From NCBI GenBank assembly GCA_036639195.1, contig JAVWJF010000005.1:5114-29113 (forward strand): a stretch of DNA of 24,000 nt. The letters are read 5' to 3'. Shown in pieces: positions 6,049 to 23,265 of this stretch. The stretch is from Longicatena sp. GTDB taxonomy: Bacteria; Bacillota_I; Bacilli_A; Erysipelotrichales; Erysipelotrichaceae. The first letter of the stretch is position 1; every line of letters begins with the position of its first letter. The translations under genes and the position numbers were made by a program. Below the pieces are notes generated by a model that was not told where the DNA came from, did not search any database, and worked only from the letters and a program-made list of their open reading frames with translations.

Positions 6049-6792
6049 TTATTGTATACTTTTTAATAAATTCTCAACACTTTGTTTACTTACGACTTCA
6101 TAATCACTTTCATGACCCGCAGGACCATAACAGTAATTCACACGTTCTCCACAAGTTGTTTCATCTTTGACCCAATCTTTACAAGAAGAGTGAATTTGTT
6201 CAACACCAGTATAAGCAATCAATTCTTTTGCGTTACTAGCATTTACTCCACATCCTGCTAGGATTTCAATTTGTCCTTTGAAGCGTGCTTGTAATTCTTT
6301 TAATACATCTTTTCCTTCACTTACATTAGGATAAGTTCCACTTGTAAGTACACGGTCTACTCCTAAATCAATAAGTGTTTGCATTGCTTTGTATGGATCA
6401 CTCACGCAATCAAATGCACGATGATACACAACTTCTTTGCCTTTTGCTTTGGCTAAATCAATCAAACATTTACTTTGTTCAACATCGATATTTCCTTGCG
6501 CATCTAAGCATCCAAATACAATCCCATCTGCTCCATGTTCCAACATATCTTTGCATTCTTCAACCATAACTTCAAAATCTTCCTTGATATAATGAAAACC
6601 CGCACCTCTTGGTCGTATCATTGTAATAACGGATAGATCCGTGTGTTGTTTTACCAAACGTAATGTTGCGACACTTGGTGTTAATCCACCCATATGCAAT
6701 GCACTATTTAATTCAATACGTTTTGCCCCACCTGCTTGCGCCTGTAAAGCATCATAATAACTTCCGCAACAAATCTCTACTTGTATATCCAT
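6049..6792 (-). CDS. cutC: CutC-family TIM-barrel protein
   Basis: 247 aa. The N-terminus VEICCGSYYDALQAQAGGAKRIELNSAL..GGLTPS is the characteristic CutC signature. It is the last gene of the operon that starts at 10309. Confidence 0.85.
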   Translation of the reverse strand: MDIQVEICCGSYYDALQAQAGGAKRIELNSALHMGGLTPSVATLRLVKQHTDLSVITMIRPRGAGFHYIKEDFEVMVEECKDMLEHGADGIVFGCLDAQGNIDVEQSKCLIDLAKAKGKEVVYHRAFDCVSDPYKAMQTLIDLGVDRVLTSGTYPNVSEGKDVLKELQARFKGQIEILAGCGVNASNAKELIAYTGVEQIHSSCKDWVKDETTCGERVNYCYGPAGHESDYEVVSKQSVENLLKSIQ

Positions 6793-6804
6793 GATGATAT
6801 CCTC

Positions 6805-8226
6805 CTATTTACGGACATTGTAATGCATTCCAGGAATCCCTGCACTTGTCATTTCATCAATGTCCAATACTTGTTCTAGTTTTTCTTCGCTCATCAAATC
6901 ATGTTCTAAGATAAGCTCTTTTAATTTACGATTTTCTAGCAATGCTTGTTTTGCCATTTTTGATGCATTTGCATATCCAATATGTGGAGCCAATGCAGTC
7001 GCTGTTCCTAATGAGTTCTCCATAACTTCACGACAATGTTCCTTATTTGCAATGATTCCTACAATCGCATTGTCTCTTAATGTATAACATGCATTTGTTA
7101 GTAAATCTACCGATTGAAATAAATTATAGAAGAGCACTGGTTCAAATACATTTAATTCCATTTGTCCCGCTTCTGCAGCTTTGGTAATGGTTGTATCGTT
7201 ACCAAACACTTGGAAACAAACCTGATTACATACCTCTGGAATTACAGGATTTACTTTTCCTGGCATAATAGAACTACCTGGTTGACGTGCTGGTAATAAG
7301 ATTTCACTTAATCCTGTTTTTGGTCCAGAAGCCATTAAACGGATATCGTTACACATTTTGGATAGATTTACAGATAATGTTTTTAATGAACCATGAGCAA
7401 ATACAAATGGGTCTACATTTCTTGTACCATCGACCAAGTCTCTTGCACTTGTAATATCCATTTGTGTAATTTCTTTTAAATAACGCACACATATTTTCTT
7501 ATAACGTTCATCCGCATTGATTCCTGTACCTACAGCAGTTGCTCCCATATTCACAGATTTCAAATCTGAAAAGGATATTTTAATTCTTCTAATATCTCGA
7601 ACAATACTCGTCGCAAACGCATGAAATTCTTGTCCCATACGAATTGGAACGGCATCTTGTAAATGCGTTCTACCAAGTTTAATGACATCATTAAACTCGA
7701 TACTTTTATCCAATAGGGACTCTTGTAAAATCATCAATTCTTCCAACAGATGTTCTACTAAGAATAAAGCAGTAATCTTACCAGCTGTAGGAAAGACATC
7801 GTTTGTAGACTGTCCAAAGTTCACGTGATCATTTGGATGAATGAAATCATAAATTCCAATTTCCTTGCCTGCTAATTGTGCTGCACGATTAGCAATGACC
7901 TCATTAGCATTCATATTGGTACTTGTTCCAGCACCACCTTGAATGACATCGGTAATAAACCATTCATCTAGTTTTCCCTCAATCACCTCATCACAAGCCA
8001 TGACAATGTATTTCAAACGTTCATCATCTAAATGTCCACATTCATGATTGGCAAGTGCACAAGCCTTCTTTATCATTCCTAAAGAATGTATCATTTGTGG
8101 ATGTGTTTTGATCATTGTGATAGGGAAGTTCTTTGTAGCACGTACGGTTTGTACACCATATAAGGCATTTTTAGGTACGGCGATTTCTCCCAGTGAATCC
8201 CGTTCTATTCTGTATTCGTTCTCCAT
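6805..8226 (-). CDS. aspA: aspartate ammonia-lyase (aspartase), fumarase/aspartase superfamily
   Basis: Has the GSSIMPGKVNP signature loop, TNMNANEVIANRA and QSTNDVFPT. The ATG at 8226 (MENEYRIERDSLG) has a GGAG SD 6 nt upstream. The track's start at 8238 is a TTG. Confidence 0.9.
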   Translation of the reverse strand: MENEYRIERDSLGEIAVPKNALYGVQTVRATKNFPITMIKTHPQMIHSLGMIKKACALANHECGHLDDERLKYIVMACDEVIEGKLDEWFITDVIQGGAGTSTNMNANEVIANRAAQLAGKEIGIYDFIHPNDHVNFGQSTNDVFPTAGKITALFLVEHLLEELMILQESLLDKSIEFNDVIKLGRTHLQDAVPIRMGQEFHAFATSIVRDIRRIKISFSDLKSVNMGATAVGTGINADERYKKICVRYLKEITQMDITSARDLVDGTRNVDPFVFAHGSLKTLSVNLSKMCNDIRLMASGPKTGLSEILLPARQPGSSIMPGKVNPVIPEVCNQVCFQVFGNDTTITKAAEAGQMELNVFEPVLFYNLFQSVDLLTNACYTLRDNAIVGIIANKEHCREVMENSLGTATALAPHIGYANASKMAKQALLENRKLKELILEHDLMSEEKLEQVLDIDEMTSAGIPGMHYNVRK

Positions 8227-8241
8227 AGTTTTCTCCAACTT

Positions 8242-9351
8242 CTATTTTGCTAAGTTATATAAGCTTAACGCATATATTTTCGCGTTCATAATAATATCTT
8301 TGATATCCATCCATTCATCTGGATTGTGTCCAATTCCCTTTTGTCCTGGGAAACTTGGACCAAATGGTACAATATTTGGCATTGCTTTTGCATAAGTACC
8401 TCCTGTTGTAGTAACAGGTGTTCCATCCATTCCACTAACTTCTTCATAGGCTGCTTGTAATGCTTGTACCATAAAACAATCTTTTTCAAAGCGAACAGGA
8501 TCATAGTTATGAATCAATTCTAATGTACAATGTTCACCCATTTTCGATTGTATTTGTGCTTGTATTTCTTCAAGTGTACAACAAGCAGGATAGCTTAATG
8601 TAAACTTGAATTCCACTTCTTCTAAATGACTTTGCAAGTGATACCCTCGCATCTGCATTTCTCCGTATTCTTCATCGTGATAATCAATACCTAAACGATT
8701 GCCATTTGGTGCGCTTTCTAGGAAATAGGTTGTTACCACAGAGAAGAATTCACCTAAGTATTCTTTGGGCGCACTTATACGAAAATTAGCACGTCCTCTT
8801 TCTCCATATACCACAGGATATTTACAATCTGGTGTCCATCCCATGATAGGTGGCTTTTCTTTTTTAAGATAGTATGTTAAATCTTCAAAACCACTTTCTT
8901 CATCCGTACCAAACATGATACGAATCTGTTTTGACAACGGTAGTTGTAATCGTTTCAAAGCATAGAGTGCATATAAACAACTCATAATAGGCCCTTTGTT
9001 ATCTAGTATCCCACGTGAATAAATACGTCCATGTTCATCTGTATATCCACTAAATGGTGGATGTGTCCAACCAACACCTACTTCAACTACATCCAAGTGT
9101 CCCATAACTCCAACGTAGTCTTCACTTTCCCCATATTTTGCATATCCCACATAGTTGTCTACGTTCTCTGTTTCAAAACCAAGTCTTTGAGAAATCTCTA
9201 ACGCTTTATCTAACGCTTCTTTGATTCCTTTTCCAAATGGTGCATCTACACATGGTTCACTTTTTACACTGTCAATTTTTACAACTTCTAATATTCCTTG
9301 TATCATCTCTTCAGAAATTTTATCAATTTCTGCTAGTATCTGTTCTTTCAT
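8242..9351 (-). CDS. M20-family metallo-dipeptidase (PepV/Sapep-like, shorter than typical PepV)
   Basis: MGHLDVV..G.GW..PPF, GRIYSRGILDNKGP, a C-terminal GGTYAK...FGPSFPG...HNPDEW. At 369 aa the lid region appears shorter than in the ~470-aa PepV enzymes (from memory, not aligned). Confidence 0.8.
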   Translation of the reverse strand: MKEQILAEIDKISEEMIQGILEVVKIDSVKSEPCVDAPFGKGIKEALDKALEISQRLGFETENVDNYVGYAKYGESEDYVGVMGHLDVVEVGVGWTHPPFSGYTDEHGRIYSRGILDNKGPIMSCLYALYALKRLQLPLSKQIRIMFGTDEESGFEDLTYYLKKEKPPIMGWTPDCKYPVVYGERGRANFRISAPKEYLGEFFSVVTTYFLESAPNGNRLGIDYHDEEYGEMQMRGYHLQSHLEEVEFKFTLSYPACCTLEEIQAQIQSKMGEHCTLELIHNYDPVRFEKDCFMVQALQAAYEEVSGMDGTPVTTTGGTYAKAMPNIVPFGPSFPGQKGIGHNPDEWMDIKDIIMNAKIYALSLYNLAK

Positions 9352-9352: not shown

Positions 9353-10309
9353 TTACTTCTCGCTAAGTGGTGCCATTCTTGTCTTCATGTAGTTATCTAA
9401 CCATTCTTTGCTAGCTTCTTCATGTACACATTTTCCATTTACATTCTTTGTTAAATAAACAATTGGTTTTTGTGTTTGTGTTGCGACTGCGAAAGAGAAT
9501 CCTTCAATGTTTGTAGATACACCCCATTCTCCTTTGTTGTTCATCGCAATCAACGATAAATCTCCTGCCTTACCACGACGTCTTGTTAATTCTTCATCCA
9601 ATTGAGCAACCGCAATATCGCAAGCCTCTTGTGGATGTTTCCCTTCTTTCATCAAGCGCACGATTTCATAGGAGATACATCCTTTCATTAGATCTTCTCC
9701 TAAACCAGTAGCACTTGCTCCACCAACCAAACTATCCACATAGAATCCAGAACCAGAAATTGGAGAATCTCCAACTCTACCCTTCTTCTTCATAAACAAT
9801 CCTGATGTTGAAGTCGCCGCTGTCATATCACCATGATTATCTAAACATACCATACCTACTGTATCATGTCCACTATATGGTTTAATCTCCAATTCTTGCA
9901 CTTCTTTTACACGATTTTTGTAGTGAATCTTCGCACGATCACTCAACATGTTCTTACGCTCAAAACCTTCTTTATGTGCAAATTTCTCTGCGCCCTCACC
10001 AACCAATAAGTTATTTACTTTTTCTTTACTTAAACGGCGTGCAATACTAATTGGATTTGCGAAATCTTTGATTGCCGCAACAGCTCCTATATCAAGCGTT
10101 GTCCCATCCATATATGCCGCATCTAATTCTACTTCCATTTCTTCATTTGGAAGTCCACCATATCCTACGGATTTATAATATGGGAAATCTTCTACCTCTT
10201 TGATTGCGACTTCGATTGCATCTCCGCTGATACCATCGTTTTCAAGCATTTCACCAGCTTTGCTAATTCCTTCTACTGCCATTCTCCAAGTTGCTATAAT
10301 ACCCCACAT
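9353..10309 (-). CDS. Ntn-hydrolase of the asparaginase-2 family, glycosylasparaginase (N4-(beta-N-acetylglucosaminyl)-L-asparaginase)-like
   Basis: Has the autoprocessing/nucleophile motif HDTVGMV, the GDSPISGSG glycine-rich loop and an N-terminus (WGIIATWRMAVEG) resembling the NTWPF...A..AW start of aspartylglucosaminidases. The GAGGAG SD favours the ATG at 10309. Confidence 0.75.
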   Translation of the reverse strand: MWGIIATWRMAVEGISKAGEMLENDGISGDAIEVAIKEVEDFPYYKSVGYGGLPNEEMEVELDAAYMDGTTLDIGAVAAIKDFANPISIARRLSKEKVNNLLVGEGAEKFAHKEGFERKNMLSDRAKIHYKNRVKEVQELEIKPYSGHDTVGMVCLDNHGDMTAATSTSGLFMKKKGRVGDSPISGSGFYVDSLVGGASATGLGEDLMKGCISYEIVRLMKEGKHPQEACDIAVAQLDEELTRRRGKAGDLSLIAMNNKGEWGVSTNIEGFSFAVATQTQKPIVYLTKNVNGKCVHEEASKEWLDNYMKTRMAPLSEK

Positions 10310-10352
10310 AATCATTCTCCTCTCGCTTTATTTTCAGCTTTTATTCCCCTCT

Positions 10353-10407
10353 ATTATAATACCATTTTAACACTTCTTTACTAAGTTCACTTCCTAAAAC
10401 TTAGGAA
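10353..10407 (-). promoter_or_regulatory. promoter module A: palindrome TTCCTAAAACTTAGGAA (10391-10407) plus -10 TATAAT (10353-10358, minus strand) for the 10309-6049 operon
   Basis: Minus-strand reading is TTTCCTAAGTTTTAGGAA, 32 nt, TATAAT. No TTGACA-like hexamer sits 16-18 nt upstream of the -10. Confidence 0.7.
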
Positions 10408-10529: not shown

Positions 10530-11624
10530 TTATTCTATAAATCCAAACATATGTTCTGGATGTTTTTCCATTTCTTCTAGAATCATGTGCTCATCTTCAC
10601 AAATATGAGCGACTAAGTTTCGTTCTCCATCATTTTCAATATCCATCAAAATAATTTCCACTTCTCCACGATAATGCATTAAGTTATCGTTGACTACAAC
10701 GACATCTCCACGATGAAACATCTTTTGTTCACAAGAGCGTGCAGGAATAGGTTCTTCTTTAAAGAAGAAACGTGGCAATGAGCTACGAATATAATAATCA
10801 CTAGCATCTTGACGACCAGTATGTGGATAATTGAATAATGCTTTTCTTTCAATCTCACTGATTCCTTCTTCAAGTTGGATCTTAATGGTTGTCTTACTTA
10901 AATCTACATTCGACATTGCTTTCAATTCATCTTCACTAGCATATGTGTTCCCAATTAAAATATCATCGATCAATTCACAAGCCAACATATGACGTACTTG
11001 AACATCAATCGGTTTTTTACGGTGAACTTCAACCGTTGGTAAACCTGCGGATACAGGCCAAGGCCCAAATGTATTTGCTTCATTGCTAGATACAAAGGCT
11101 GCAGTACGTAAGCCTAAACTCTTCCATTTTTCATTTAACTTCATAAACAATTTCCAACTGATACCGCTGTATCGTTCTGGATAAAAGTTATGACAAACAA
11201 TCACATTATGCGGATCTGCCCCATGTTTCAATAAGTAATCAAGAGTAGAATCAGCACTTCCGTTAAATTCTATCTTTATTTGATATTCATTGTGTGTAAT
11301 AGCACGATCTAAGAAATCATCGAAATGTCCATCCAAGCGAATGATATCTACTTGCATATCATGGAACACTTTCAAATCCAAAGGGGTCGCTCCTAAATGT
11401 TTGAATACTTCTGGATTGGTATCGACAGCTACTTCAAACCCTAATGCATGTGCACGCTTCATAAAATCTGAAAATTCTTCTATGATTTCTTCTTTTGATT
11501 TTTTTACTGATAATAAACAAGTAAAGATTCTAGTAAAACCATATTTGGCGGCTACTTCCATATAGGCTTGATCTTTTTCTGCTGTGGAATGCTCTGGGTA
11601 TAAACTAATTCCTAACTTATGCAT
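10530..11624 (-). CDS. DUF871 / MupG-family TIM-barrel protein (6-phospho-N-acetylmuramidase-like phospho-glycosidase)
   Basis: 364 aa. The N-terminus KLGISLYPEHST.EKDQAYMEVAAKYGFTRIFTCLLSV and the overall length match the DUF871 family. GGAGGG SD. Confidence 0.8.
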   Translation of the reverse strand: MHKLGISLYPEHSTAEKDQAYMEVAAKYGFTRIFTCLLSVKKSKEEIIEEFSDFMKRAHALGFEVAVDTNPEVFKHLGATPLDLKVFHDMQVDIIRLDGHFDDFLDRAITHNEYQIKIEFNGSADSTLDYLLKHGADPHNVIVCHNFYPERYSGISWKLFMKLNEKWKSLGLRTAAFVSSNEANTFGPWPVSAGLPTVEVHRKKPIDVQVRHMLACELIDDILIGNTYASEDELKAMSNVDLSKTTIKIQLEEGISEIERKALFNYPHTGRQDASDYYIRSSLPRFFFKEEPIPARSCEQKMFHRGDVVVVNDNLMHYRGEVEIILMDIENDGERNLVAHICEDEHMILEEMEKHPEHMFGFIE

Positions 11625-11650: not shown

Positions 11651-11704
11651 ATTATACGCAAAAAAATAGAGAAACTTCTATACTTTATTTCCTAATGTTA
11701 GGAA
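11651..11704 (-). promoter_or_regulatory. promoter module B: palindrome TTCCTAATGTTAGGAA (11689-11704) plus -10 TATAAT (11651-11656, minus strand) for the DUF871 gene
   Basis: Minus-strand reading is TTCCTAACATTAGGAAA, 32 nt from TAGGAA to TATAAT. No -35 is visible. Confidence 0.7.
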
Positions 11705-11762: not shown

Positions 11763-12083
11763 TTATTTTTTAAATGTTTTAATCAATTTAATTGCTGTTT
11801 TAAGTACTTTTTCACCGTTCATCATACCATAATCTGCAGCATCAATAACAGCTACTGGAACTTCCTCTCCAAAGCGTTTGTTCGTTTCTTCAAACAAATA
11901 CTTTACTTGAGGTCCAAGTAAGATGCAATCTGGATGTAATTGTTCTACGATATCACCAATCTTTGAATGAGAATATGCTTTTACTTCTAAAGGAAGATCA
12001 TGAGCATTTGCTACATTCTGCATTTCTTGTGCTAACATACTCGTAGACATACCAGCGCTACAAAATAAATAAATTTTCTTCAT
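11763..12083 (-). CDS. PTS EIIB component, lactose/cellobiose family (copy 1)
   Basis: 106 aa. The N-terminal MKKIYLFCSAGMSTSML contains the phospho-accepting Cys loop. ILLGPQVKY is also present. Confidence 0.9.
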   Translation of the reverse strand: MKKIYLFCSAGMSTSMLAQEMQNVANAHDLPLEVKAYSHSKIGDIVEQLHPDCILLGPQVKYLFEETNKRFGEEVPVAVIDAADYGMMNGEKVLKTAIKLIKTFKK

Positions 12084-12100: not shown

Positions 12101-12430
12101 TTATTTCAGCTTATTTTCAAGAGCCGTAATTCTCTCATAGCTTTGAATCAATTCACTCGCAATAATTTTAAAACCTTCTGCACTCATCAATTGATCTTCT
12201 GCATGAACCAAAAGCAAACAAGTTTCAACCTTTTCACCGCTTGCTTCTTGTTGAATCATTTTCGCATGAGCTTCGTGTCCTTGAAGGAAACTTTTTTCCC
12301 CTTCTTCAATCATTTCTCTAGCTTTTTCAAAATTTGCTTTCTTTGCTTCCTGTATTGCTTCTATATAGCTGGAGCGAGCCATTCCAACAGCTGAGATTAT
12401 CTGAAAGCATTGCAATTCCAAACCTTCCAT
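12101..12430 (-). CDS. PTS EIIA component, lactose/cellobiose family
   Basis: 109 aa helical protein with IISAVGMARS and the active-site His context LLLVHAEDQLMSAE. GAGGAGGG SD. Confidence 0.9.
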   Translation of the reverse strand: MEGLELQCFQIISAVGMARSSYIEAIQEAKKANFEKAREMIEEGEKSFLQGHEAHAKMIQQEASGEKVETCLLLVHAEDQLMSAEGFKIIASELIQSYERITALENKLK

Positions 12431-12472: not shown

Positions 12473-12529
12473 ATTATACTAGTCATTAAAAGAAAATACT
12501 TTTAACACCGTTTCCTAATGATTAGGAAA
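12473..12529 (-). promoter_or_regulatory. promoter module C: palindrome TTTCCTAATGATTAGGAAA (12511-12529) plus -10 TATAAT (12473-12478, minus strand) for EIIA-EIIB
   Basis: Minus-strand reading is ATTTCCTAATCATTAGGAAA, 33 nt from TAGGAA to TATAAT. No -35 is visible. Confidence 0.7.
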
Positions 12530-12553: not shown

Positions 12554-12611
12554 TTCCTAAGTCGTTAGGAAAGTCATCTACCATCCTTTTTCAAACCCAT
12601 TCCCTTATAAT
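12554..12611 (+). promoter_or_regulatory. promoter module D: palindrome TTCCTAAGTCGTTAGGAAA (12554-12572) plus -10 TATAAT (12606-12611) for the divergent pepF-like operon
   Basis: On the plus strand there are 34 nt from TAGGAA to TATAAT. No -35 is visible. It lies 24 bp from site C in the same divergent intergenic region. Confidence 0.65.
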
Positions 12612-14402: not shown

Positions 14403-15332
14403 ATGATAAAGTTCTTTAATTTACATGATGATATAGGTAGTGATATTTTTGAACATCGCATAGAACAACCCAATCGTCTAGACGATTATCATTATCCTAA
14501 AATGAAACAAGGTGGGATTGATACAACTGCAATTGTTTGTTGTTTCTCTTCTAGCGAAACATGGCAAGATATGATGGAGCAAGTCTTATATATAAATGCA
14601 TCCATAGAGCGAAGTGAACACTATTCCTTTGGTTACGATAAAGATATTCGTGTCTTTATCGCGCTAGAGGGAATGTGTGGAATACGTGATCAAGTAAGAG
14701 AAAAAATACAGTGGTTATATCAACATAATGTACGCATGGCATCTCTTTGTTGGAATGACCATAACGCACTTGCTTGTGGAGCAAAAAGTGGAAACATGCC
14801 ACTTAGTGATTTGGGTATACAATGTATTGAAGCAATGAATGAAGTTCATATGGCAATCGATGTCAGTCATTGTTGTGAGTGGAACTTCTATGATATACAA
14901 CGTATCTCTACAACACCGATCCTAGCAACCCACAGCAATGTAAAAGGATTATTCAATCATTATCGAAATCTAAGCGATCCTCAAATTCAAGTTTTACAAG
15001 AACATGGTGGTATCCTAGGTGCTCTTCCTGTTCGTTGGTTTGTGACAAGAGATGAATCCAAACAAACGCTAAAAGAATTCATCAAAATCATAGATTATAT
15101 AAAAGAACGCTTTGGAACCCAACTTATCGCATTGGGATTTGATTTCATGGATTATATGGATGATCCTACTTGTATGGTAAAAGAATTGGATAGTGTAGCA
15201 CATATTCAAAACTTAGCAAATCAACTGTTAGAGCATGGCTATTCACAAGAGGAAGTAGAGACGATTTGCTTTGGAAATGCAAATCGCTATATGGAAAGTT
15301 ACCTGATTTACGAAAACGAAGAAGGGAAATAA
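14403..15332 (+). CDS. M19-family (renal-type/membrane) dipeptidase homologue
   Basis: Shows NLHDD at the N-terminus, then DVSH and ATHSN, in the order of the M19 metal ligands. The ATG at 14403 has an AAGGGA SD 7 nt upstream. The track's 14385 start overlaps the pepF-like stop and is less likely. Confidence 0.8.
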   Translation: MIKFFNLHDDIGSDIFEHRIEQPNRLDDYHYPKMKQGGIDTTAIVCCFSSSETWQDMMEQVLYINASIERSEHYSFGYDKDIRVFIALEGMCGIRDQVREKIQWLYQHNVRMASLCWNDHNALACGAKSGNMPLSDLGIQCIEAMNEVHMAIDVSHCCEWNFYDIQRISTTPILATHSNVKGLFNHYRNLSDPQIQVLQEHGGILGALPVRWFVTRDESKQTLKEFIKIIDYIKERFGTQLIALGFDFMDYMDDPTCMVKELDSVAHIQNLANQLLEHGYSQEEVETICFGNANRYMESYLIYENEEGK

Positions 15333-15336
15333 ATAT

Positions 15337-16800
15337 ATGAAAGTACTATTTGGTTATTTTAGTTCAGAATCTAACGAACATTCTCGCAGTCTTATGACAT
15401 TTGATAAATTCGTCTTTAAGTTTGGAGAAGAAGCAATTCAACATGTGTCTTGTCGTAACGTATTTGAAGATGCTGGAATTGAGTTAATTCCCAGTATTAT
15501 AGCACGTGGACATCCTCATGGTCTTGTGACATATGATGCCTTTGAATTCATTCGCTCACGTTTACTTACGGAAGTAAAAGCACATATGCATGAAATAGAT
15601 GGAATCTATTTATTCTTACATGGTGCAAGTAAAGTCATTGGACTTGAAGGAGGTTCGGCAGAACATGCCTTCTTAAGAGATATTCGAAAGATTGTTGGTC
15701 CTCACATGCCTATCGCACTCGTGATGGATCAGCATGGAAACTTATCACAAGAACTCGTAGACAATGTGAACATTCTTCGATGTTATCGACACTCTCCACA
15801 TACCGACGCACTAGAAACATTTGCATTTGTCGCAGAGAAATTCGTAGATTTATTAAAGAACAGAAGAAATATGCACCCTGTTTATCGTAAAGTTCCAATT
15901 ATTATTGGAGGAGAAAAAAGTGTTTCTCTTGATGAACCTATGCTATCCATCAACAAGATGTGTGATGACGCAGAAAAAGATGCACGCATTCTAAGTGCTT
16001 CTTTCCATATTGGATATCTACGTCATGATGGTGACAAGCTAGGATGTTCTGTAGTCGTTGTTCCACAACGTGAAAAATATCGTGCATATGCGGAAGAAGT
16101 TGCTGATCAAATACGTGCCTTTGCATATTCTAAACGTCACGAGTTTCATTACCATGGAAATACTGGTCTCCCTGAGGAAGTACTAAAGAAAGCTGTTGCT
16201 CATACTGGTGGCACAGTGTTTGTCACTGATTCTGGAGATAATGTTGGCTCTGGAGGAGATGGTTTTAATACCTTTATCCTACAACAGATTTTAAAATTAA
16301 AAGATACAAATAACAAACGTTATCTGATAAGTGGCATTGTCGATCATAATGCCTTCAAAGAACTCTATGGAAAAGAAGTCGGAGAACATGTTTCTCTGCG
16401 TGTTGGTATGGATTTTGATGATCTATGTAAAGCAGTAGATGTAGAAGGGGTAATCATTGCCAAAGGCTTACCCGATGAAGGTTATGAACATAAAAAAGAT
16501 ATGGGAACTGCAATCACAGTGCAATTTGATCATGCGCCAGTCAGCGTTGTAATATTGAACGATGCGATTCAATTTTATGAACCACAACAATATGCTCGCT
16601 GTGGAATCACATTAGAAGATTATGATGTCGTTGTGGTTAAACAAGGATATATATCTGCTGAGTTTGATGCATATGGCGATTTATGTATGATGGCACTTAC
16701 GCAAGGACCTACATACCAAAGAAGTGAACTATTAGAGTTCAAACAAATTTATCGTCCAATGTGGCCATATGATGACTATGAATTAGAGGATATGTTATAA
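15337..16800 (+). CDS. M81-family metallopeptidase (MlrC / microcystinase-C-like, DUF1485 N-domain)
   Basis: 487 aa. FGYFSSESNEHS (cf. HETNTF), YLFLHGA, MDQHGN and YRHSPHTD occur in the order I recall for the MlrC family. Confidence 0.75.
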   Translation: MKVLFGYFSSESNEHSRSLMTFDKFVFKFGEEAIQHVSCRNVFEDAGIELIPSIIARGHPHGLVTYDAFEFIRSRLLTEVKAHMHEIDGIYLFLHGASKVIGLEGGSAEHAFLRDIRKIVGPHMPIALVMDQHGNLSQELVDNVNILRCYRHSPHTDALETFAFVAEKFVDLLKNRRNMHPVYRKVPIIIGGEKSVSLDEPMLSINKMCDDAEKDARILSASFHIGYLRHDGDKLGCSVVVVPQREKYRAYAEEVADQIRAFAYSKRHEFHYHGNTGLPEEVLKKAVAHTGGTVFVTDSGDNVGSGGDGFNTFILQQILKLKDTNNKRYLISGIVDHNAFKELYGKEVGEHVSLRVGMDFDDLCKAVDVEGVIIAKGLPDEGYEHKKDMGTAITVQFDHAPVSVVILNDAIQFYEPQQYARCGITLEDYDVVVVKQGYISAEFDAYGDLCMMALTQGPTYQRSELLEFKQIYRPMWPYDDYELEDML

Positions 16801-16828: not shown

Positions 16829-17050
16829 ATGAGATAACTTTTTATAACATTCTATTCAAAGGAATATGAAAGCTACATATAGCTTTGCGAAATCATTCAA
16901 ATTTACAAGGTTAGAGCTCAATTCACTCTCTACTTAGGAGGGTCATTATGCATATAGGAAAAATCTCATAACAGGATAATGCATAAAAGGTAGAATTAGA
17001 TACAAATCATACTTGAAATATTATATAATACATTTTAAAGAGGGATGATA

Positions 17051-17623
17051 ATGATACTATATGTAGACGAAACAGAATGTGATGATTACTTTATCGTTGC
17101 AGGAATATTGACGGATTCCAAAGATAAGACGGATAAAATCTACAAGCAATTTAAAAAGAAGGTTAAGAATATTCCTTTATCTAAACGAGAGAAAGAAAAA
17201 ATATTCATTGAGTTCAAATCTGTTTATTTGGATAATAAATATCAGAAAATAAAAATTCTAATGCTTAAGCAAATCAATCAATTAAACTATAAAATCATTT
17301 TTTCAATGTACAACAAGAATGGAAATAGGATGAATCAGGAAACAAAAGAAAAACAATATATCTTATTGCTCGATAATATAGTCTCAAAAACAAGCAAGGA
17401 TATTGATATTATTTTTGATTCCTTTAATAAAAATAATTTTGAACAAAAAATAATTGATACTATCAAAATTCGTAAGCATGTAATATCAATTAAAAAACAA
17501 GATTCACGCTTAGAAGCAGGTATACAATTCATTGATAATATTTGCAGTGTTATACGTATGTATAAGACAAATGTAGAAAATGATTTTTATAAATTTATAG
17601 CAGATAACATTCTTGAAGTTTGA
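17051..17623 (+). CDS. DUF3800-like protein
   Basis: About 190 aa. The N-terminal LYVDET (DUF3800 DESG-type acidic motif) and the C-terminal GIQFIDNICSVIR (Q..D motif) are in the expected positions. The gene is extremely AT-rich. The AAAGAGGG SD favours the ATG at 17051. Confidence 0.5.
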   Translation: MILYVDETECDDYFIVAGILTDSKDKTDKIYKQFKKKVKNIPLSKREKEKIFIEFKSVYLDNKYQKIKILMLKQINQLNYKIIFSMYNKNGNRMNQETKEKQYILLLDNIVSKTSKDIDIIFDSFNKNNFEQKIIDTIKIRKHVISIKKQDSRLEAGIQFIDNICSVIRMYKTNVENDFYKFIADNILEV

Positions 17624-17642
17624 CTTTTTTAATATGTCCAAA

Positions 17643-17671
17643 TTGACATATATGTATAGTTATGGTATATT
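17643..17671 (+). promoter_or_regulatory. near-consensus sigma-A promoter (TTGACA, 17 nt, TGG-TATATT) driving the candidate sRNA
   Basis: TTGACA sits at 17643-17648 and TATATT at 17666-17671, separated by a 17-nt spacer with an extended -10 TG at 17663-17664. Confidence 0.7.
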
Positions 17672-17677
17672 TTGGTT

Positions 17678-17765
17678 ACAAAGAGAGTATGCTCTTTATG
17701 GATATGGCTTTCTGACCGCTTGAGGTTGGATGTGCAGATTGATGCGGAACCATATCCTTTTTTTA
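17678..17765 (+). ncRNA. candidate orphan small RNA (~88 nt) with 5' hairpin and long imperfect terminator hairpin
   Basis: The predicted TSS lies ~7 nt after the -10. The 5' hairpin is AAAGAG-AGTATG-CTCTTT (17680-17697). The outer stem GGATATGG (17700-17707) pairs with CCATATCC (17750-17757), with inner CCGC/GCGG pairs, and is followed by seven T (17758-17764). No plausible ORF with an SD lies inside. Confidence 0.5.
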
Positions 17766-18025
17766 TGAAATTGAAGCTGTCATTATCGGCAGAATAGATA
17801 TATAACTATGTCTACGAACTTTAATTTAAAACACAAAGTAAATGTAATTTTTAATATTTTTTTCTTATCGAATAGAAATAGTAACTACATAATGGATGCT
17901 ACGCTCATTCAAAAAAACCTTTTAGTTATCACAACATTTTAGTATGCCATATTTCATTTATTTACTCAGTTTTCTATAAATGAGATATCTAGTTTATGAT
18001 ACCATACGAAAAAGAGGAATCTATT

Positions 18026-18475
18026 ATGACACATACCATAGGCTGTTTTTGTATCATCTTTAAATCCAATAAAATACTTTTAGTGAAACGAAAGGATTTT
18101 CCTTTGTGGGATCTACCTGGTGGAAGAAAAGAACAAGGAGAAAGTGAAATTGCTTGCGTCATTCGAGAAGCAAAAGAAGAATGTGGATACAGCATTTCTA
18201 TTGATCAAGAAATTGGACGTTATAAACGCGCGAAATATCAAGATACACAAGTTGTCTTTTCTACTCATATTCTAGAAGAATGCATCGATTTTACAAGCGA
18301 TGAAACTAAATGCATAAAATGGTTTCCATTGCATAAATTACCTTATAATCTTGTGCCTAATCGAAGATTGCAAATACAACATTTTAAAAAAGGATATTCT
18401 CAACTTGAAATATCCCTTAAAGATCATCACCCTTTATTAGTACTACAACGCTTTTATAAATTTCTGCATAAATAA
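18026..18475 (+). CDS. NUDIX hydrolase
   Basis: Nudix box GGRKEQGESEIACVIREAKEECG (GX5EX7REUXEEXGU). AGAGGA SD lies 7 nt before the ATG at 18026. Confidence 0.85.
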   Translation: MTHTIGCFCIIFKSNKILLVKRKDFPLWDLPGGRKEQGESEIACVIREAKEECGYSISIDQEIGRYKRAKYQDTQVVFSTHILEECIDFTSDETKCIKWFPLHKLPYNLVPNRRLQIQHFKKGYSQLEISLKDHHPLLVLQRFYKFLHK

Positions 18476-18481: not shown

Positions 18482-18508
18482 TAAAAAGTGTCTCTCGACA
18501 CACTTTTT
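18482..18508. terminator. bidirectional terminator between the convergent NUDIX and M42 genes
   Basis: AAAAAGTGTC-TCTC-GACACACTTTTTA, with A- and T-runs on both sides. Confidence 0.7.
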
Positions 18509-19598
18509 ATTGTATAGAAGCTTTCATTGCTTTTAGTTTTTCCCAATTTACACGACGGCAGAATTCTGCGATTGCTTCAACGGTTTGTACATAATCTTTG
18601 CGATGAATCATCAAACGATGAGAATGCATATAACGAGTTGGAATGCTTAACGTCATCGTTATGATACCATCAAATGCTTTATGAATATTATCCGCATCTG
18701 TTCCTCCAGCAGTCATCATATCATAATTGATATCAAGACCTAAATCACGACAGATATCTTCCATTTCATGTAGAAGTGCTTTATGTGCAATGATACCTGC
18801 ATCCATCACGCTCAATACAACTCCTCCACCAAGCTTTACTTCCCCTTTATCCATTGGTGTATCTAATGCAGTTGTAACATCCAATGCGATCGCGACATCA
18901 GGATGTATAAGGTTTGTGGCAGTTCTAGCACCACGAAGACCTACTTCCTCTTGTACGGTTCCTACAGCATACACATTGGCTTCATGATCATCGTTTTGAA
19001 TGCGGTACAACACATCCATGGCAAGACCTGCACATAAACGATCATCCCAAGCCTTTCCCATTAAATAATTCGGATTGTTCATAACTTCGAACGTTGTATC
19101 TGGTGTAATCATATCACCAATTTGAATACCTAACTCTACTACTTCTTCTTTGTTATCAACACCCAAATCCAAAAATAAATCCATCGGTTTGATAACCTTT
19201 TCTTTTACTTCCGCTGGAAGTCCATGAGGTGCACTTGACCCAACCACTCCATGATATCGTTTGCCTTCTTTGGTAGTTACATATAAAGTTTGGGAAGGAA
19301 GCACATGTCCCCACCAACCACCAACTGGTAACATTCTAATATAACCTTGTTCATCAATTTCACGTACCATGAAACCAACTTCATCCATGTGTCCACAAAT
19401 CATAACTTTTGGTCCATCTTTATGACCTTTTTGTAATCCTACAATGGAACCTAAATTATCATATGTAATCTCATCACTGACTGGTGTTAACCATTTTTTC
19501 ATGACACGACTAACTTCTTTTTCACATCCAGAAATACCATGAGCTTCACTCATTTCTTTGATCATTTCTAGATTCATTTCTCCATAGGCTTCTTTCAT
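18507..19598 (-). CDS. M42-family aminopeptidase (FrvX/YsdC/PepA-like), paralog 2
   Basis: 363 aa with GHMDEVGFMV, AWDDRLC and GTVQEEVGLRGA motifs. Confidence 0.9.
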   Translation of the reverse strand: MKEAYGEMNLEMIKEMSEAHGISGCEKEVSRVMKKWLTPVSDEITYDNLGSIVGLQKGHKDGPKVMICGHMDEVGFMVREIDEQGYIRMLPVGGWWGHVLPSQTLYVTTKEGKRYHGVVGSSAPHGLPAEVKEKVIKPMDLFLDLGVDNKEEVVELGIQIGDMITPDTTFEVMNNPNYLMGKAWDDRLCAGLAMDVLYRIQNDDHEANVYAVGTVQEEVGLRGARTATNLIHPDVAIALDVTTALDTPMDKGEVKLGGGVVLSVMDAGIIAHKALLHEMEDICRDLGLDINYDMMTAGGTDADNIHKAFDGIITMTLSIPTRYMHSHRLMIHRKDYVQTVEAIAEFCRRVNWEKLKAMKASIQ

Positions 19599-19607: not shown

Positions 19608-20672
19608 TTAGCGATTTTCCGCTTTATAAGCGTTAATTTTTTCTTCATCAAGAGATTGGATAATGGAAAGTATAGCTGCTTTAGCACATTCATAATCACG
19701 TAGATCTATGATGCTGTTTCCAGTATGACCATTACGAGCACAAATACATGCGCTTAAGGTAGGACATCCAGAAAATAATTTATGAATCCAGGCAGCATCC
19801 GTTTGTGCCATATTATAAAAGTATTGATATGGAAGTTGTTGTTTTTCACATGTTTGTACAAGTGTATCCAACAACATACGATTTGGCATCATACCCTTAT
19901 CATAATAGCGAACTAAAATACCTTTCCCTAATTGTCCAACTGCATTCTCTTTTCCACTTATATCATTGGCAAAGCTACAATCCATAACAATACCCATATC
20001 TGGATGAATCAAACCTGTTGCTGTTGTTCCACCACGAATTCCAACTTCTTCTTGAACAGTTGCGCCAATGTATAAATCTACATCTAATTCGATATCTTTA
20101 AGTGCTTTTAAAACTTCAATTGCCATAACACAACCATAACGATTATCCCATGCTTTTGAAAGAATGCGATGTCCATCTTTTAATACAACAAATGGACCAT
20201 CTAGCACAGCACTATCCCCTACTTTAACACCCCAATCATTTGCCATAGTATCGCTTTCTGCACCAAAATCAATCAACATTTTCTTTACATCACAGGAAGC
20301 AATATCATCACTATCACATACGATATTACCTACCAACTCTGTACCATTGCTAGCTTTCACACGTACTCGTTGTGCATGTAAACTTTGTGGATTGATTCCA
20401 CCAATACAAATGAATCCAGCTAATCCATTTTTCTTAATACTAGTAATCATAAAACCAATTTCATCCATATGTCCACATACCATAACTCTTGGAGCATTCG
20501 GTTTTTTACTCTTCTTTACTGCAAATATAGATCCTAGATTATCATACACAATTTCATCTGCGTAGGATTCCATATGTCTTTTCATTATATGTGAGACTTC
20601 TTTTTCATCTCCAGAAATACCAATTACCTGTGTTAATTCTTGCATCAATGCAAGTGTTTCATCAAAATACAT
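19608..20672 (-). CDS. M42-family aminopeptidase (FrvX/YsdC/PepA-like), paralog 1
   Basis: 354 aa with GHMDEIGFMI, AWDNRYGC and ATVQEEVGIRGG motifs. It lies 9 nt upstream of paralog 2. Confidence 0.9.
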   Translation of the reverse strand: MYFDETLALMQELTQVIGISGDEKEVSHIMKRHMESYADEIVYDNLGSIFAVKKSKKPNAPRVMVCGHMDEIGFMITSIKKNGLAGFICIGGINPQSLHAQRVRVKASNGTELVGNIVCDSDDIASCDVKKMLIDFGAESDTMANDWGVKVGDSAVLDGPFVVLKDGHRILSKAWDNRYGCVMAIEVLKALKDIELDVDLYIGATVQEEVGIRGGTTATGLIHPDMGIVMDCSFANDISGKENAVGQLGKGILVRYYDKGMMPNRMLLDTLVQTCEKQQLPYQYFYNMAQTDAAWIHKLFSGCPTLSACICARNGHTGNSIIDLRDYECAKAAILSIIQSLDEEKINAYKAENR

Positions 20673-20701: not shown

Positions 20702-20758
20702 ATTATAAGCCTTTTTTCCATAATGTATATGAAGTTTGTTTCCTAATGCATAGGAAAC
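20702..20758 (-). promoter_or_regulatory. promoter module E: palindrome GTTTCCTAATGCATAGGAAAC (20738-20758) plus -10 TATAAT (20702-20707, minus strand) for the M42 pair
   Basis: A perfect 8-5-8 inverted repeat, with 32 nt from TAGGAA to TATAAT on the minus strand. No -35 is visible. Confidence 0.75.
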
Positions 20759-20810: not shown

Positions 20811-21335
20811 TTAATGGTATGCGTGCTCTTTGATCATTTCACTTACGTCTTCTTTTTTCGCAAGTGCAAGTGCAAATTCACACATCATTGTTAAGCTTTG
20901 TGGTAAACCTGTACCACCTTTTTTAGGCATTTTAAGAATTGTAACATGATTTTTAAATTCTTCAATTGCCTCACTGCATTCCTCTGACATAATAGCAAAT
21001 GCAGGAATATCTGTTAGTTCATTGATTACTTGTGCCGTTTTTGCAGCCATTTTTCCATAGCTTCCATAATTGAAGCATGGTCCACAAATAACAACATCAG
21101 GATTTAACTTTTTGCTCATTGCTGCAAATTTCTTTCCGTTTGTTTCTGGATCTTGCGCAAATGTTCCATCTCCACAATATAGAGTAGCACAAATGCTACC
21201 ACCCATTTCTGTTAAAGACTTTTCAAACATGTGACAAGAACCTATCGCCATTGGCTTTCCACCCATTGCTAAATCTGGACTTTCTTTACCACCAAGTCCT
21301 GCTTGCGTCTGATCAAATACCATCAATACTTTCAT
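20811..21335 (-). CDS. GrdB (glycine/sarcosine/betaine reductase component B) N-terminal-domain-only protein
   Basis: 174 aa, collinear with the GrdB N-terminus as I recall it: VFDQTQAGLGGKE (cf. HYINQFFAGIGGEE), ATLYCGDGTF (cf. ATVICGDSYF), PDVVICGPCFNYGSYG (cf. PDLFIAGPAFNAGRYG), DIPAF. It ends long before the Sec-containing region. The start overlaps the EIIB2 stop context (TAAAATG). Confidence 0.65.
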   Translation of the reverse strand: MKVLMVFDQTQAGLGGKESPDLAMGGKPMAIGSCHMFEKSLTEMGGSICATLYCGDGTFAQDPETNGKKFAAMSKKLNPDVVICGPCFNYGSYGKMAAKTAQVINELTDIPAFAIMSEECSEAIEEFKNHVTILKMPKKGGTGLPQSLTMMCEFALALAKKEDVSEMIKEHAYH

Positions 21336-21336: not shown

Positions 21337-21666
21337 TTATTGTTCTCCTTGTTTTCTTTTTTGTAGCAGAAGTAATGCTTTCTTTAGTACTTTTTCACCA
21401 TCCATCATCCCATAATCTTCTTGAGAGATTAACATCACAGGTGTATCTTCATCATAATTCTTTTTCGTTTCATTGAATAAGTACTTTACCTGTGGCCCTA
21501 ATAGGATGATATCCGGATGTTTTTCATCTACGATACTTTGCATTTTCTTATAGGAAAATGCAGCAACTTCAATTGGTAACAGATGCTGATTTGCACAGTC
21601 TTGCATACGACTAGCTAATAAGCTCGTAGACATTCCCTGATCACAAAATAAATAGAATCGTTTCAT
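21337..21666 (-). CDS. PTS EIIB component, lactose/cellobiose family (copy 2)
   Basis: 109 aa. MKRFYLFCDQGMSTSLL contains the Cys loop. ILLGPQVKY is also present. Confidence 0.9.
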   Translation of the reverse strand: MKRFYLFCDQGMSTSLLASRMQDCANQHLLPIEVAAFSYKKMQSIVDEKHPDIILLGPQVKYLFNETKKNYDEDTPVMLISQEDYGMMDGEKVLKKALLLLQKRKQGEQ

Positions 21667-21689: not shown

Positions 21690-21747
21690 ATTATAAAACT
21701 TTATCACGAAAAATTCATCCAATTATATTTCCTAGTTATTAGGAAAT
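21690..21747 (-). promoter_or_regulatory. promoter module F: palindrome ATTTCCTAGTTATTAGGAAAT (21727-21747) plus -10 TATAAT (21690-21695, minus strand) for EIIB2 / GrdB-like
   Basis: A perfect 8-5-8 inverted repeat, with 33 nt from TAGGAA to TATAAT. No -35 is visible. Confidence 0.75.
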
Positions 21748-21778
21748 ATAAAAGAAAGAGATAGCGTTCGCTATCTCT
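21748..21778 (-). terminator. Rho-independent terminator after EIIC (following a ~125-nt 3' UTR)
   Basis: Minus strand reads AGAGATAGCG-AA-CGCTATCTCT followed by TTCTTTTAT. Confidence 0.75.
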
Positions 21779-21903
21779 AAATCTATACGTTTATAGATAT
21801 ACCTGTTTCCTGTTGGTTTATCTTTTTTTTATGCTTTTCTTGTAGAATTCTAATCGTTATTTTGATATTTTCAAATTATCGAAAGGTATACGATTTAAAA
21901 TTC

Positions 21904-23265
21904 TTATAGGTCATCCAATGATAAATCATCGAATGAAATATCTTCGTCGTCTGTTCCTTCTGCATTTTCTTCATCATGTAAGTACCCTTTATCAAGTGCT
22001 TTAATGAATGGGAAGTAAATACAACATCCGATAACAAGTAAGATAATCTGCCACACAGCTGCAATCCAACTTCCTGTTGATAACCAACCAGAGAATCCAA
22101 TTGGAGTTGTCCAAGGTAAGTTTACACCTGTTGTTCTAGGTAGAATTTCTGCCACTGTTAAGAAATATGAAGTACATAAGTTAAACATTGGTACAAAGAT
22201 AAATGGAATAATCATAATTGGGTTCAATACAATTGGTAAACCAAAGATGATTGGTTCATTGATTCCAAATACTCCTGGAACGATACTTAAACGACCTAAT
22301 ACTTTAATACGTTCTGATTTACAGAATAATAACATACAAATTACAAGCGATAGCGTACTACCTCCACCACCGAAGTTCGTAAAGAAATTCGAGAACGGAT
22401 TTGTAAAGATATGTGGTAATTCATTGTTTGGTGTACCTGCTTCAAAGGCAATTAATTGATCCGCTGTTAATACGTTACCAATAAAGAACACTGAGTTCAT
22501 TACGGCTGGACCATTGATACCAAAGAACCATAAGAATGTACACATGAAACTATAGATAGCATTTGCTCCTAATGTATCTCCTAACCCTTTCATAGGTGTT
22601 TGAAGAACAGTAAATACGAATCCCTGTGCAGTTTCAAATGGAGTGAACTGGAAGAAGATACGAATTAAGAAACATACTAATAATACAACAGCACTTGGAA
22701 CTAATGCAGCAAATGAATCTGCTACAGCTGGTGGAACACCTTTAGGCATTTTGATTGTCCAACCTTTTTTGTATACCCAAATAAATAGAAGTACACAAAG
22801 AATTGAACAACATAGAGCCATAAAGATACCATTCGTACCAATATTATCGAAAGATAAACCAGCAAATGCACCTTCTACAACGACTTCTCCTGCATCATTT
22901 GTAGCATCGTGAATTACAGGTTGTAAGATAAAGAATGAAACTAAGGCAACTGCTGCACCTTGAATTTTATCCCCTTTAAACTCTCTCGCCATTGCATACC
23001 CAGTACCCAAACAAGTAAGCAACGCTGTACAGTTGAATGTTGCACGAGATACGGCTTTAAACCATTCTTCCCAGCCTGCCCCAAAGACACCTGTCCAGAA
23101 ATCTGACCATCCTGGAATAGGGAAGTTAGCAATCAGCAAGAAGATTGAACCAACGATCAACAATGGTGTAGCAATTAAGAATCCGTCACGAATAGCGATC
23201 AATACTCTGTTTTTACTCAACACGTCAGACATTGGCATAAGAATTTTTTCGAGCTTGTCAAACAT
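21904..23265 (-). CDS. PTS EIIC permease, lactose/cellobiose family, with acidic C-terminal tail
   Basis: 453 aa polytopic membrane protein. The N-terminus (ILMPMSDVLSKNRVLIAIRDGF), the FGINGP loop and GINEPIIFGLPIVLNP are hallmarks of CelB/ChbC-type EIIC. GAGGAGG SD. Confidence 0.95.
   Translation of the reverse strand: MFDKLEKILMPMSDVLSKNRVLIAIRDGFLIATPLLIVGSIFLLIANFPIPGWSDFWTGVFGAGWEEWFKAVSRATFNCTALLTCLGTGYAMAREFKGDKIQGAAVALVSFFILQPVIHDATNDAGEVVVEGAFAGLSFDNIGTNGIFMALCCSILCVLLFIWVYKKGWTIKMPKGVPPAVADSFAALVPSAVVLLVCFLIRIFFQFTPFETAQGFVFTVLQTPMKGLGDTLGANAIYSFMCTFLWFFGINGPAVMNSVFFIGNVLTADQLIAFEAGTPNNELPHIFTNPFSNFFTNFGGGGSTLSLVICMLLFCKSERIKVLGRLSIVPGVFGINEPIIFGLPIVLNPIMIIPFIFVPMFNLCTSYFLTVAEILPRTTGVNLPWTTPIGFSGWLSTGSWIAAVWQIILLVIGCCIYFPFIKALDKGYLHDEENAEGTDDEDISFDDLSLDDL

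Follow-up and report, generated by a model that had tools for sequence, protein, structure and literature searches.

Why should a sugar transporter of the phosphotransferase system (PTS) stand under common control with a glycosylasparaginase and a set of peptidases? The question is raised by a 24,000-nucleotide stretch of the genome of Longicatena sp., a gut bacterium of the Erysipelotrichaceae (contig JAVWJF010000005.1; the whole stretch, with a G+C content of about 35%, is called the window hereafter), in which seven transcription units preceded by one and the same palindrome encode a complete Lac-family PTS, an N-terminal nucleophile (Ntn) hydrolase, aspartase and several peptidases. Proteins identical to those encoded here have been deposited both under metagenome-assembled genomes of Longicatena sp. 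and under Amedibacillus sp. YH-ame6 and YH-ame10. An initial annotation, made from the letters of the DNA, had read this set as a PTS-linked system for the catabolism of glycopeptides or of N-acetylglucosaminyl-asparagine (GlcNAc-Asn). Our analysis leads us to consider it probable, with a good share of doubt, that the locus is a regulon controlled by a PRD-type activator and devoted, through a Lac/Chb-type PTS, to the catabolism of GlcNAc-beta-Asn, either free or in very short peptides. Gene families were assigned with Pfam and NCBIfam and judged against the cutoffs of the models, and every gene that had been named in the annotation was confirmed in this way; the GrdB-like gene, a partial RDD gene, the DUF3800 and NUDIX genes and a regulator located beyond the window had escaped it.

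A predicted glycosylasparaginase at the centre of the locus

The Ntn hydrolase (AGA; 9353-10315, minus strand; Pfam Asparaginase_2) is assigned by its sequence to the glycosylasparaginase type, and the corresponding activity can be predicted. It scores 203 bits (E 6e-59) with the Flavobacterium glycosylasparaginase 1p4k, as compared with about 118 bits with isoaspartyl peptidases, at most 125 when plant-type L-asparaginases are included, and 77 bits with taspase. Its HDTVGM motif aligns with HNTIGM of 1p4k, which is a precursor variant, and delimits the predicted His-Asp-Thr autoprocessing site with the Thr nucleophile; the equivalents of Asp151-Thr152, Thr170 and Thr203-Gly204 are kept, the motifs TSG and ATGLGE are conserved, GRVGDSPI retains the equivalents of Arg180 and Asp183, the residues responsible for binding the free alpha-carboxyl and alpha-amino groups, and in ATWRM, aligned with STWNF, the equivalent of the Trp11 placed over the sugar site is also present. 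In NCBI records homologues carry the name N(4)-(beta-N-acetylglucosaminyl)-L-asparaginase, and the sole NCBIfam match is a beta-aspartyl-peptidase model reached with 126 bits against a cutoff of 567. Glycosylasparaginases need free alpha-amino and alpha-carboxyl groups on the asparagine, and their canonical specificity is for unphosphorylated GlcNAc-Asn. Residues 281-320 (9353-9472) form a conserved, clade-specific C-terminal extension of about 40 amino acids (...EWLDNYMKTRMAPLEEK) that is absent from the Flavobacterium enzyme and could be linked to a phosphorylated substrate or to oligomerisation. Among the homologues, a metagenomic "GrdB-AGA fusion" (P0090) turned out to be an N-truncated read-through of a short intergenic spacer and was discarded as evidence of fusion, and the internal duplications of two long forms (P0001 and P0077) probably arose as artefacts of assembly or gene calling.

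AGA opens a single unit behind one palindrome, in which it is followed on the same strand by a PepV/Sapep-type M20 dipeptidase (8242-9351; TIGR01887, 338 bits, cutoff 208), an aspartate ammonia-lyase (aspartase, AspA; 6805-8238; NF008909, 677 bits, cutoff 510) and a TIM-barrel protein of the CutC family (6049-6792; PF03932, 203 bits). On the plus strand, a three-gene peptidase operon (12638-16800) encodes an M3 oligoendopeptidase (12638-14401), an M19 dipeptidase (14385-15332) and an M81/MlrC-like peptidase (15337-16800), all three recognised by Pfam and NCBIfam. The families M19, M81 and M20 include enzymes that tolerate unusual linkages. Signal peptides were found in none of the regulon enzymes, including AGA, M3, M19 and M81, and all of them are predicted to reside in the cytoplasm.

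Conservation of the gene set across genomes

A scan of one genome per species retrieved 363 stretches encoding a relative of this hydrolase. The counts given here refer to the best 80 loci, which are at least 78% identical and belong to Peptostreptococcaceae, Erysipelotrichaceae/Coprobacillaceae, Clostridiaceae, Lachnospiraceae and Butyricicoccaceae; they derive from the mapping of the window's proteins onto these loci and from an assumption-free clustering of all their open reading frames. AGA was recovered in 78 of the 80, with M20 directly after it in 64 and CutC after M20 also in 64. The PTS components followed closely (EIIC in 61, IIB in 58 and IIA in 52 loci), together with a PRD regulator (55), the GrdB-like protein (52), an RDD protein (47) and YitT (46), MupG was found in 31 and every other family in 17 at most. 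The usual gene order is regulator-RDD-IIA-IIB-EIIC-GrdB-like-AGA-M20-CutC-YitT(-MupG). The conserved core thus comprises the PRD regulator, RDD, IIA, IIB, EIIC, the GrdB-like protein, AGA, M20, CutC and YitT, with MupG as an optional member. Within it AGA is the slowest-evolving protein, its median pairwise identity being 81% as against 41-75% for the others.

Conservation beyond this genome had been set beforehand as a test of the proposal, and the association of PTS, AGA and M20 recurs in many species of several orders; since both the operon and its palindrome are conserved across related loci, the association is not an accident of the window's genome. The membership of the system has to be redrawn nonetheless. 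The peptidases, aspartase and MupG, which the annotation had counted as parts of one co-regulated system, do stand under the palindrome in the window; outside window-like contigs, however, M3 appeared only in two loci (L016 and L052), M19 only in the first of these, and aspartase only in two others (L035 and L038). Aspartase, M3, M19 and M81 are additions limited to the window's lineage and a few others.

A palindrome and a PRD-type regulator

The palindrome TTCCTA-N4-6-TAGGAA precedes each of the seven transcription units of the window, five times with an exact N5 spacer, once with N4 and once with N6, always in the gap that separates the terminator of one unit from the promoter of the following one. 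About 1.4 matches would be expected by chance in the window even with two mismatches allowed, and none of 100 shuffled sequences reached nine. The N5 copies lie at 23370-23386 (TTCCTAAGGTATAGGAA) before the EIIC unit, with a TATAAT 33 nt further on towards the gene, at 21729-21745 before the unit of IIB and the GrdB-like gene (+33), at 20740-20756 before the M42-M42 unit (+32), at 12512-12528 before the IIA-IIB unit (+33, minus strand) and at 10391-10407 before the AGA-M20-AspA-CutC unit (+32); the N4 variant (11689-11704) precedes the MupG-like unit (+32) and the N6 variant (12554-12571) the M3-M19-M81 unit (+34, plus strand). A perfect TATAAT is therefore placed 32-34 nt past the end of the palindrome in all seven units, with no consensus -35 box, and across the window and the related loci 83 TAnAAT matches at this spacing were counted for 113 sites. 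Two degenerate palindromes at 5954 and 17862, with two mismatches each, have no TATAAT at this distance and were left out of the count. Because the centre of the palindrome falls near -53, that is, upstream of the -35 position in a promoter without -35 box, the palindrome probably serves as an activator site, to which binding of the regulator can be predicted, and its position at all seven promoters makes the reading as a repressor operator unlikely. The single operator shared by seven units, as first annotated, is thus real as a site, its placement being that of a PRD-type activator site instead of an operator for a repressor.

No regulator gene is encoded within the window. On contigs with an identical EIIC, the sequence beyond it carries the RDD gene (231 amino acids), a gene for a PRD regulator of 637 amino acids and a divergent YitT/DUF2179 gene; in the window's own genome the regulator gene is found at 7116-9029 of the locus L086. 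The order of domains HTH_11, Mga, PRD (two stretches) and PTS_EIIA_2 was seen in this protein and in those of two other loci (L023 and L018), and the similarity of the regulator to curated models is weak (AcpB/EbpR/MafR, 84 bits, cutoff 130). Two further palindromes are located between the YitT and the regulator genes, which would bring the organism to nine sites and nine units and make the regulator autoregulated. In one other locus (L019) a variant palindrome, TTTCCACTTTTGGAAA, lies upstream of the regulator gene. The palindrome occurs 106 times in 1.42 Mb of related loci, where 0.55 copies are expected; it was found in 52 of the 55 loci with a PRD regulator and in one of the 19 that lack both the regulator and the PTS, and the scan of related loci did not find it in those regulated by GntR. 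Our findings therefore supply a candidate regulator-site pair, in which a PRD activator would act through TTCCTA-N4-6-TAGGAA at about -53.

Transport components and conserved partners

The EIIC, EIIB and EIIA proteins of the Lac/cellobiose/chitobiose family (TC 4.A.3) are all encoded on the minus strand of the window. EIIC (21904-23265; PF02378; TIGR00410, 374 bits, cutoff 236) belongs to an M42-linked subtype described below. There are two EIIB copies (PF02302), at 11763-12083 and 21337-21666, with the phospho-acceptor Cys8 in LFCSAGMSTS and LFCDQGMSTS, respectively, and an EIIA of the Lac/Chb type (12101-12430; PF02255) with its His in VHAEDQLM, a residue retained in alignments to IIA(Lac) 1e2a and to 3k1s. 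The phospho-acceptor residues of EIIA and of both EIIB copies are present.

The MupG/DUF871 (GH170) protein (10530-11624, minus strand) contains both the MupG_N (278 bits, cutoff 24) and the MupG_C (103 bits, cutoff 24.4) domains, and its best match in the PDB is 1x7f from B. cereus (303 bits). It is predicted to be a hydrolase of the 6-phospho-beta-N-acetylhexosaminidase type forming an optional module of the system. The founder of the family is a 6-phospho-N-acetylmuramidase (PMC6262408), a fact that speaks for salvage of muropeptides; the genomic context argues against N-acetylmuramic acid (MurNAc) as the sugar of the window's enzyme, since the clustering of the 80 loci revealed no conserved family beyond the core, MurNAc-6-phosphate etherase not having been searched by name.

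Two further conserved partners accompany the PTS and AGA. The first is a GrdB-related protein of 174 amino acids without selenocysteine (20811-21335, minus strand; NF041545, 238 bits, cutoff 175), whose gene is invariably placed after EIIC or IIB in systems of this kind; a PDB search with its sequence gave no hit, and its AlphaFold2 model (pLDDT 96.6) displays a generic flavodoxin-like fold with no specific PDB match. The second is CutC, with the human CUTC 3iwp as its best PDB match (149 bits). CutC is conserved from bacteria to humans, and its role in copper metabolism is doubtful. At the edge of the window, the 3' part of the gene for an RDD-family membrane protein (Pfam RDD) occupies 23530-24000 on the minus strand, with a frame that stays open to the window end and a gene that continues beyond.

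The M42-type subtype and the link to GlcNAc-6-phosphate

Two M42 aminopeptidases (PF05343) are encoded on the minus strand at 18507-19598 (M42a) and 19608-20672 (M42b). With 34% identity between them, they are paralogues whose relationship to the M42 pairs of three other loci (L089-L091) is orthologous pair by pair and with the order kept, M42b corresponding to the first member (38-54% identity) and M42a to the second (57-64%). The EIIC of the window is 55-73% identical to those of M42-containing loci, and these EIICs form a group of their own, with a median mutual identity of 62% and at most 54% identity to the EIICs of canonical operons. The window is therefore an "M42-type" variant that has been split into separately promoted units. 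GrdB-like proteins that are only 49-53% identical to that of the window occupy the same type of operon in Vagococcus, Enterococcus and Crassaminicella. In Vagococcus jeotgali the locus contains M20, GntR, AGA, IIB, EIIC, GrdB-like, M42 and M42, and in Candidatus Enterococcus murrayae the same set is joined by an acetyltransferase and an FGase-family gene.

The locus of Crassaminicella profunda (L090) reads NagA, NagB, IIA, IIB, EIIC, GrdB-like, M20, M42, M42, IIA, AGA, IIB, CutC and PRD regulator. A variant palindrome, TTTCCTAATAAAAAGGAAAT, occurs at about 4545 and 6585, ahead of nagA-nagB and of IIA, the two copies being embedded in an almost identical stretch of 35 nt. The presence of the same site before both nagA-nagB and the PTS gene ties the catabolism of GlcNAc-6-phosphate (GlcNAc-6P) to the regulon in Crassaminicella.

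A proposed pathway and its alternatives

GlcNAc-beta-Asn is a beta-N-glycoside, and the PTSs of the Lac/Chb family import beta-glycosides with phosphorylation at O6 of the non-reducing sugar. The pathway proposed here is inferred from gene families, conserved residues, synteny, the statistics and geometry of the site and its co-occurrence with the regulator, which are the features directly observed. EIIC, IIB and IIA would import GlcNAc-Asn, or glycopeptides of the size of a di- or tripeptide, and would phosphorylate GlcNAc at O6 as the family does with other beta-glycosides. Cytoplasmic peptidases, namely M20 in most loci, the M42 pair in the M42 subtype and M3, M19 and M81 in the window's lineage and a few others, would free the glycosylated asparagine at both its alpha-amino and its alpha-carboxyl group. 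The glycosylasparaginase would then fill the role played by the phospho-beta-glycosidase in ordinary Lac-family operons, cutting the amide to release L-aspartate and 1-amino-GlcNAc-6P, and the latter would decay or be converted to GlcNAc-6P and ammonium. It can be speculated that CutC, the GrdB-like protein or both help in this step; the authors working on Lacticaseibacillus casei invoked an acid-dependent spontaneous decay of 1-amino-GlcNAc (PMC6960285), which leaves room for an enzyme. In the window's genome aspartase would split the aspartate to fumarate with release of ammonium, GlcNAc-6P would be processed to fructose-6-phosphate by NagA and NagB, whose genes lie in another part of the genome, and the optional GH170 MupG-like enzyme might handle GlcNAc-6P-beta-1,4-GlcNAc(-Asn), by analogy with ChbE of the chitobiose system discussed below. 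The PRD regulator (HTH-Mga-PRD-PRD-EIIA_2) would bind the palindrome near -53 and activate nine promoters including its own, presumably under control by PTS phosphorylation. The PTS-linked catabolism that was initially put forward thus finds support in the residues of AGA, in synteny, in nagA-nagB of Crassaminicella and in the precedent of the alf-2 operon treated below, once the membership of its core has been corrected.

Several points weigh against this pathway. We know of no PTS that carries a conjugate with an amino acid or a peptide, and the pathway presupposes that the glycosylasparaginase would accept a 6-phosphorylated substrate. EIIC stays under every substrate-specific equivalog cutoff (cellobiose 374 bits, cutoff 434; lactose 212, cutoff 614; chitobiose 159, cutoff 760), so that the transporter does not identify the sugar. 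An M3 oligoendopeptidase seems suited to substrates larger than those that EIIC would pass. The genes nagA and nagB adjoin the system in one of the inspected loci only. Finally, in some genomes AGA-M20-CutC(-YitT) is kept with neither a PTS nor a PRD regulator nor a palindrome less than 10 kb away, and the PTS is accordingly not obligatory for this gene set, whose uptake system in these genomes must be different or encoded elsewhere, with YitT as a candidate transporter. Loci of this kind include L031, L032, L046, L055, L061 and L064, and CutC stays with AGA-M20 in most of the loci that have M20 but no PTS.

A serious variant of the pathway, which we regard as rather unlikely, holds that the PTS imports another glycosyl-asparagine, such as chitobiosyl-Asn, stubs of the Man-GlcNAc type or Glc-Asn from bacterial N-glycosylation, that the phosphate is placed on the distal sugar and removed with it by the MupG-like or another glycosidase, and that the asparaginase acts on unphosphorylated GlcNAc-Asn. 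This scheme would respect the canonical specificity of glycosylasparaginases for the unphosphorylated substrate, and it would give a task to the MupG/GH170 gene, present in 31 of the 80 operons and endowed with its own palindrome in the window. It also agrees with the action of the GH170 enzyme ChbE downstream of a chitobiose PTS (PMC12791066). Most of the operons, however, are devoid of any glycosidase, and the loci share no conserved sugar kinase, so that the freed GlcNAc would need an enzyme encoded elsewhere.

It is improbable, in our judgement, that the locus combines the catabolism of beta-aspartyl or isoaspartyl and general peptides with an unrelated cellobiose/chitobiose PTS under the same control, the Ntn hydrolase being then a beta-aspartyl peptidase. 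The many peptidases and the aspartase under a common site would fit such an arrangement, as would the cleavage of beta-aspartyl peptides reported for glycosylasparaginases and the name of the only NCBIfam model matched by AGA, far as the score lies under its cutoff. Against this, AGA matches true glycosylasparaginases with much higher scores and has retained the equivalent of Trp11, its embedding between the PTS genes and M20, conserved in order in dozens of species, is hard to explain on these terms, and the loci have no conserved phospho-beta-glycosidase of GH1 or GH4.

Salvage of muropeptides, in which the PTS would import MurNAc-GlcNAc-peptides, MupG would cut the 6-phospho-disaccharide and stem peptides including D-iso-Asx bridges would be digested by the peptidases together with the Ntn hydrolase, was entertained at the outset in view of the founder of the MupG family and of the tolerant M19, M81 and M20 families, and is now very improbable indeed, for MupG is optional (31 of 80 loci), M19 and M81 are almost limited to the window's lineage, the invariant glycosylasparaginase would have no substrate in peptidoglycan, and the clustering of the 80 loci, in which only a few of the minor clusters were annotated and MurNAc-6-phosphate etherase, amidase and NagZ were not searched by name, yielded no conserved family beyond the core.

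A more far-reaching proposal can be made, which we hold tentatively and with more doubt than confidence: that this would be the first PTS to act on a glycopeptide or a glyco-amino acid, the phospho-glycosidase giving way to a "6-phospho-glycosylasparaginase", that CutC, the GrdB-like protein, RDD and YitT would be missing parts of the pathway, and that the M42 pair with its own EIIC clade may explain the M42 peptidases of cryptic PTS operons, including fry, frv and sgc of E. coli. Such parts might, for example, turn 1-amino-GlcNAc-6P into GlcNAc-6P at neutral pH or deal with the amino-acid moiety.

Comparison with known systems

The closest described system is the alf-2 operon of Lacticaseibacillus casei/paracasei, the substrate of which is fucosyl-alpha-1,6-GlcNAc-Asn (Becerra et al. 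2020; PMC6960285). Its glycosylasparaginase AsnA2 is cytoplasmic, cleaves GlcNAc-Asn, tolerates fucose at O6 and is linked to pepV and to an aspartate-consuming enzyme (PMC6960285). The two systems have in common a glycosylasparaginase without signal peptide (AsnA2 being likened to AGA by description), a PepV-type M20 peptidase, an enzyme that consumes aspartate and a substrate from the N-glycan core, the last being predicted in our case. They differ in that alf-2 relies on the permease AlfH, of the major facilitator superfamily, and the kinase SugK, whereas the Lac-family PTS is predicted to import and phosphorylate in one step; in the alpha-1,6-fucosidase AlfC, with no fucosidase in the window; in an aspartate 4-decarboxylase in place of aspartase; in a GntR repressor, AlfR2, in place of the PRD-type activator with its palindrome at about -53; and in the additional conserved partners of the present system, the GrdB-like protein, CutC, RDD, YitT and, in the subtype, M42. 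Neither the window nor the conserved clusters of the 80 loci contain members of the AlfH, AlfC, SugK or AlfR2 families. Given that the features defining alf-2 are missing, the system of the window is a different implementation and not a member of that group. Figure 7 of the same paper apparently shows PTS genes near some asnA2 clusters of Lactobacillus, which its text does not discuss (PMC6960285).

By transport logic the closest relatives are the Lac-family PTS operons with phospho-glycosidases, such as the chb system of L. paracasei, in which growth on diacetylchitobiose imported by a cellobiose-type PTS depends on the GH170 enzyme ChbE (PMC12791066), and MurP-MupG of S. aureus (PMC6262408). 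The types of IIA, IIB and IIC, the expected beta-linked substrate and a GH170/MupG enzyme under common control are shared with them. In those operons the cleaving enzyme is a glycosidase of GH1, GH4 or GH170, whereas here an amidohydrolase, the predicted glycosylasparaginase, is invariant; peptidases are integral to the present system, and a PRD activator takes the place of GntR (ChbR).

By regulation the MtlR/LicR/ManR class is closest. With this class and with Mga/AtxA-like regulators the predicted activator has in common the HTH_11-Mga-PRD-PRD-EIIA_2 order, a site upstream of promoters without -35 box and a site before its own gene; it departs from them in its low similarity to the curated models, binding and control by phosphorylation being predicted.

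The occurrence of M42 peptidases in E. coli PTS operons, to which the initial annotation had also drawn attention, was borne out for fryBC-ypdFE-fryA, the stretch inspected, where an M42 aminopeptidase lies inside a PTS operon of unknown substrate. This stretch contains no gene for a glycosylasparaginase, a GrdB-like protein or CutC, the homology of its products to the window's proteins is below the curated cutoffs, and its PTS components are of the fructose or galactitol type and not of the Lac family. Components of those types also characterise the frv and sgc PTSs. For the window's M42 proteins the best matches are PRK09961 and PRK09864, two models of E. coli aminopeptidases, all with scores below cutoff, and the N-terminal part of the PRD regulator shows a weak match to the model of E. 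coli FrvR (E 1.5e-12, below cutoff). These matches hint at a distant kinship with the cryptic PTS-peptidase operons of E. coli.

In the literature searched, to the exclusion of subscription-only papers, we found neither a PTS-dependent pathway for GlcNAc-Asn or glycopeptides nor a link between CutC and glycosylasparaginase.

Other features of the window

The locus is split between the M81 and the M42 units by a DUF3800 gene (17045-17623) and a NUDIX gene (17996-18475), neither with a palindrome. Related loci of other species do not contain this stretch, the G+C content of which is as low as 0.26 (17001-18000); the two genes are not members of the regulon and resemble an insertion. Between them a candidate small RNA was noted at 17643-17778 on the plus strand, with a promoter close to consensus (TTGACA-17-TATATT) and an upstream TG. 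It would measure about 100 nt and fold well, with a dG of -26.8 kcal/mol (z -2.3), ending in a hairpin and a U7 terminator. Rfam gave no match in the window at the gathering threshold, nor in 17550-18050 at E values up to 1. At the other end of the locus, in the interval 5875-6048 between CutC and a gene of the tetrapyrrole-methylase family, there are AT-rich palindromes of another kind, TATACTGTATAGTATA and TTCTATACTGTAGAA, which may be the site of another regulator.

Biological implications

Many gut bacteria possess endoglycosidases that remove the N-glycans of host and dietary proteins, on which GlcNAc-Asn stubs are left behind. An inducible system for these stubs, with relatives at 363 genomic sites, would, if the proposed function is correct, reveal a niche on host glycoproteins that has gone unrecognised in the searchable literature, one in which the GlcNAc-Asn stub would be a source of both carbon and nitrogen, and it would extend the range of PTS substrates to conjugates of sugars and amino acids. 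The system is widespread, coherent and experimentally tractable, and it provides a testable functional context for families that have remained orphans, namely CutC, the GrdB-like proteins without selenium, RDD, YitT/DUF2179 and the M42 peptidases of PTS operons.

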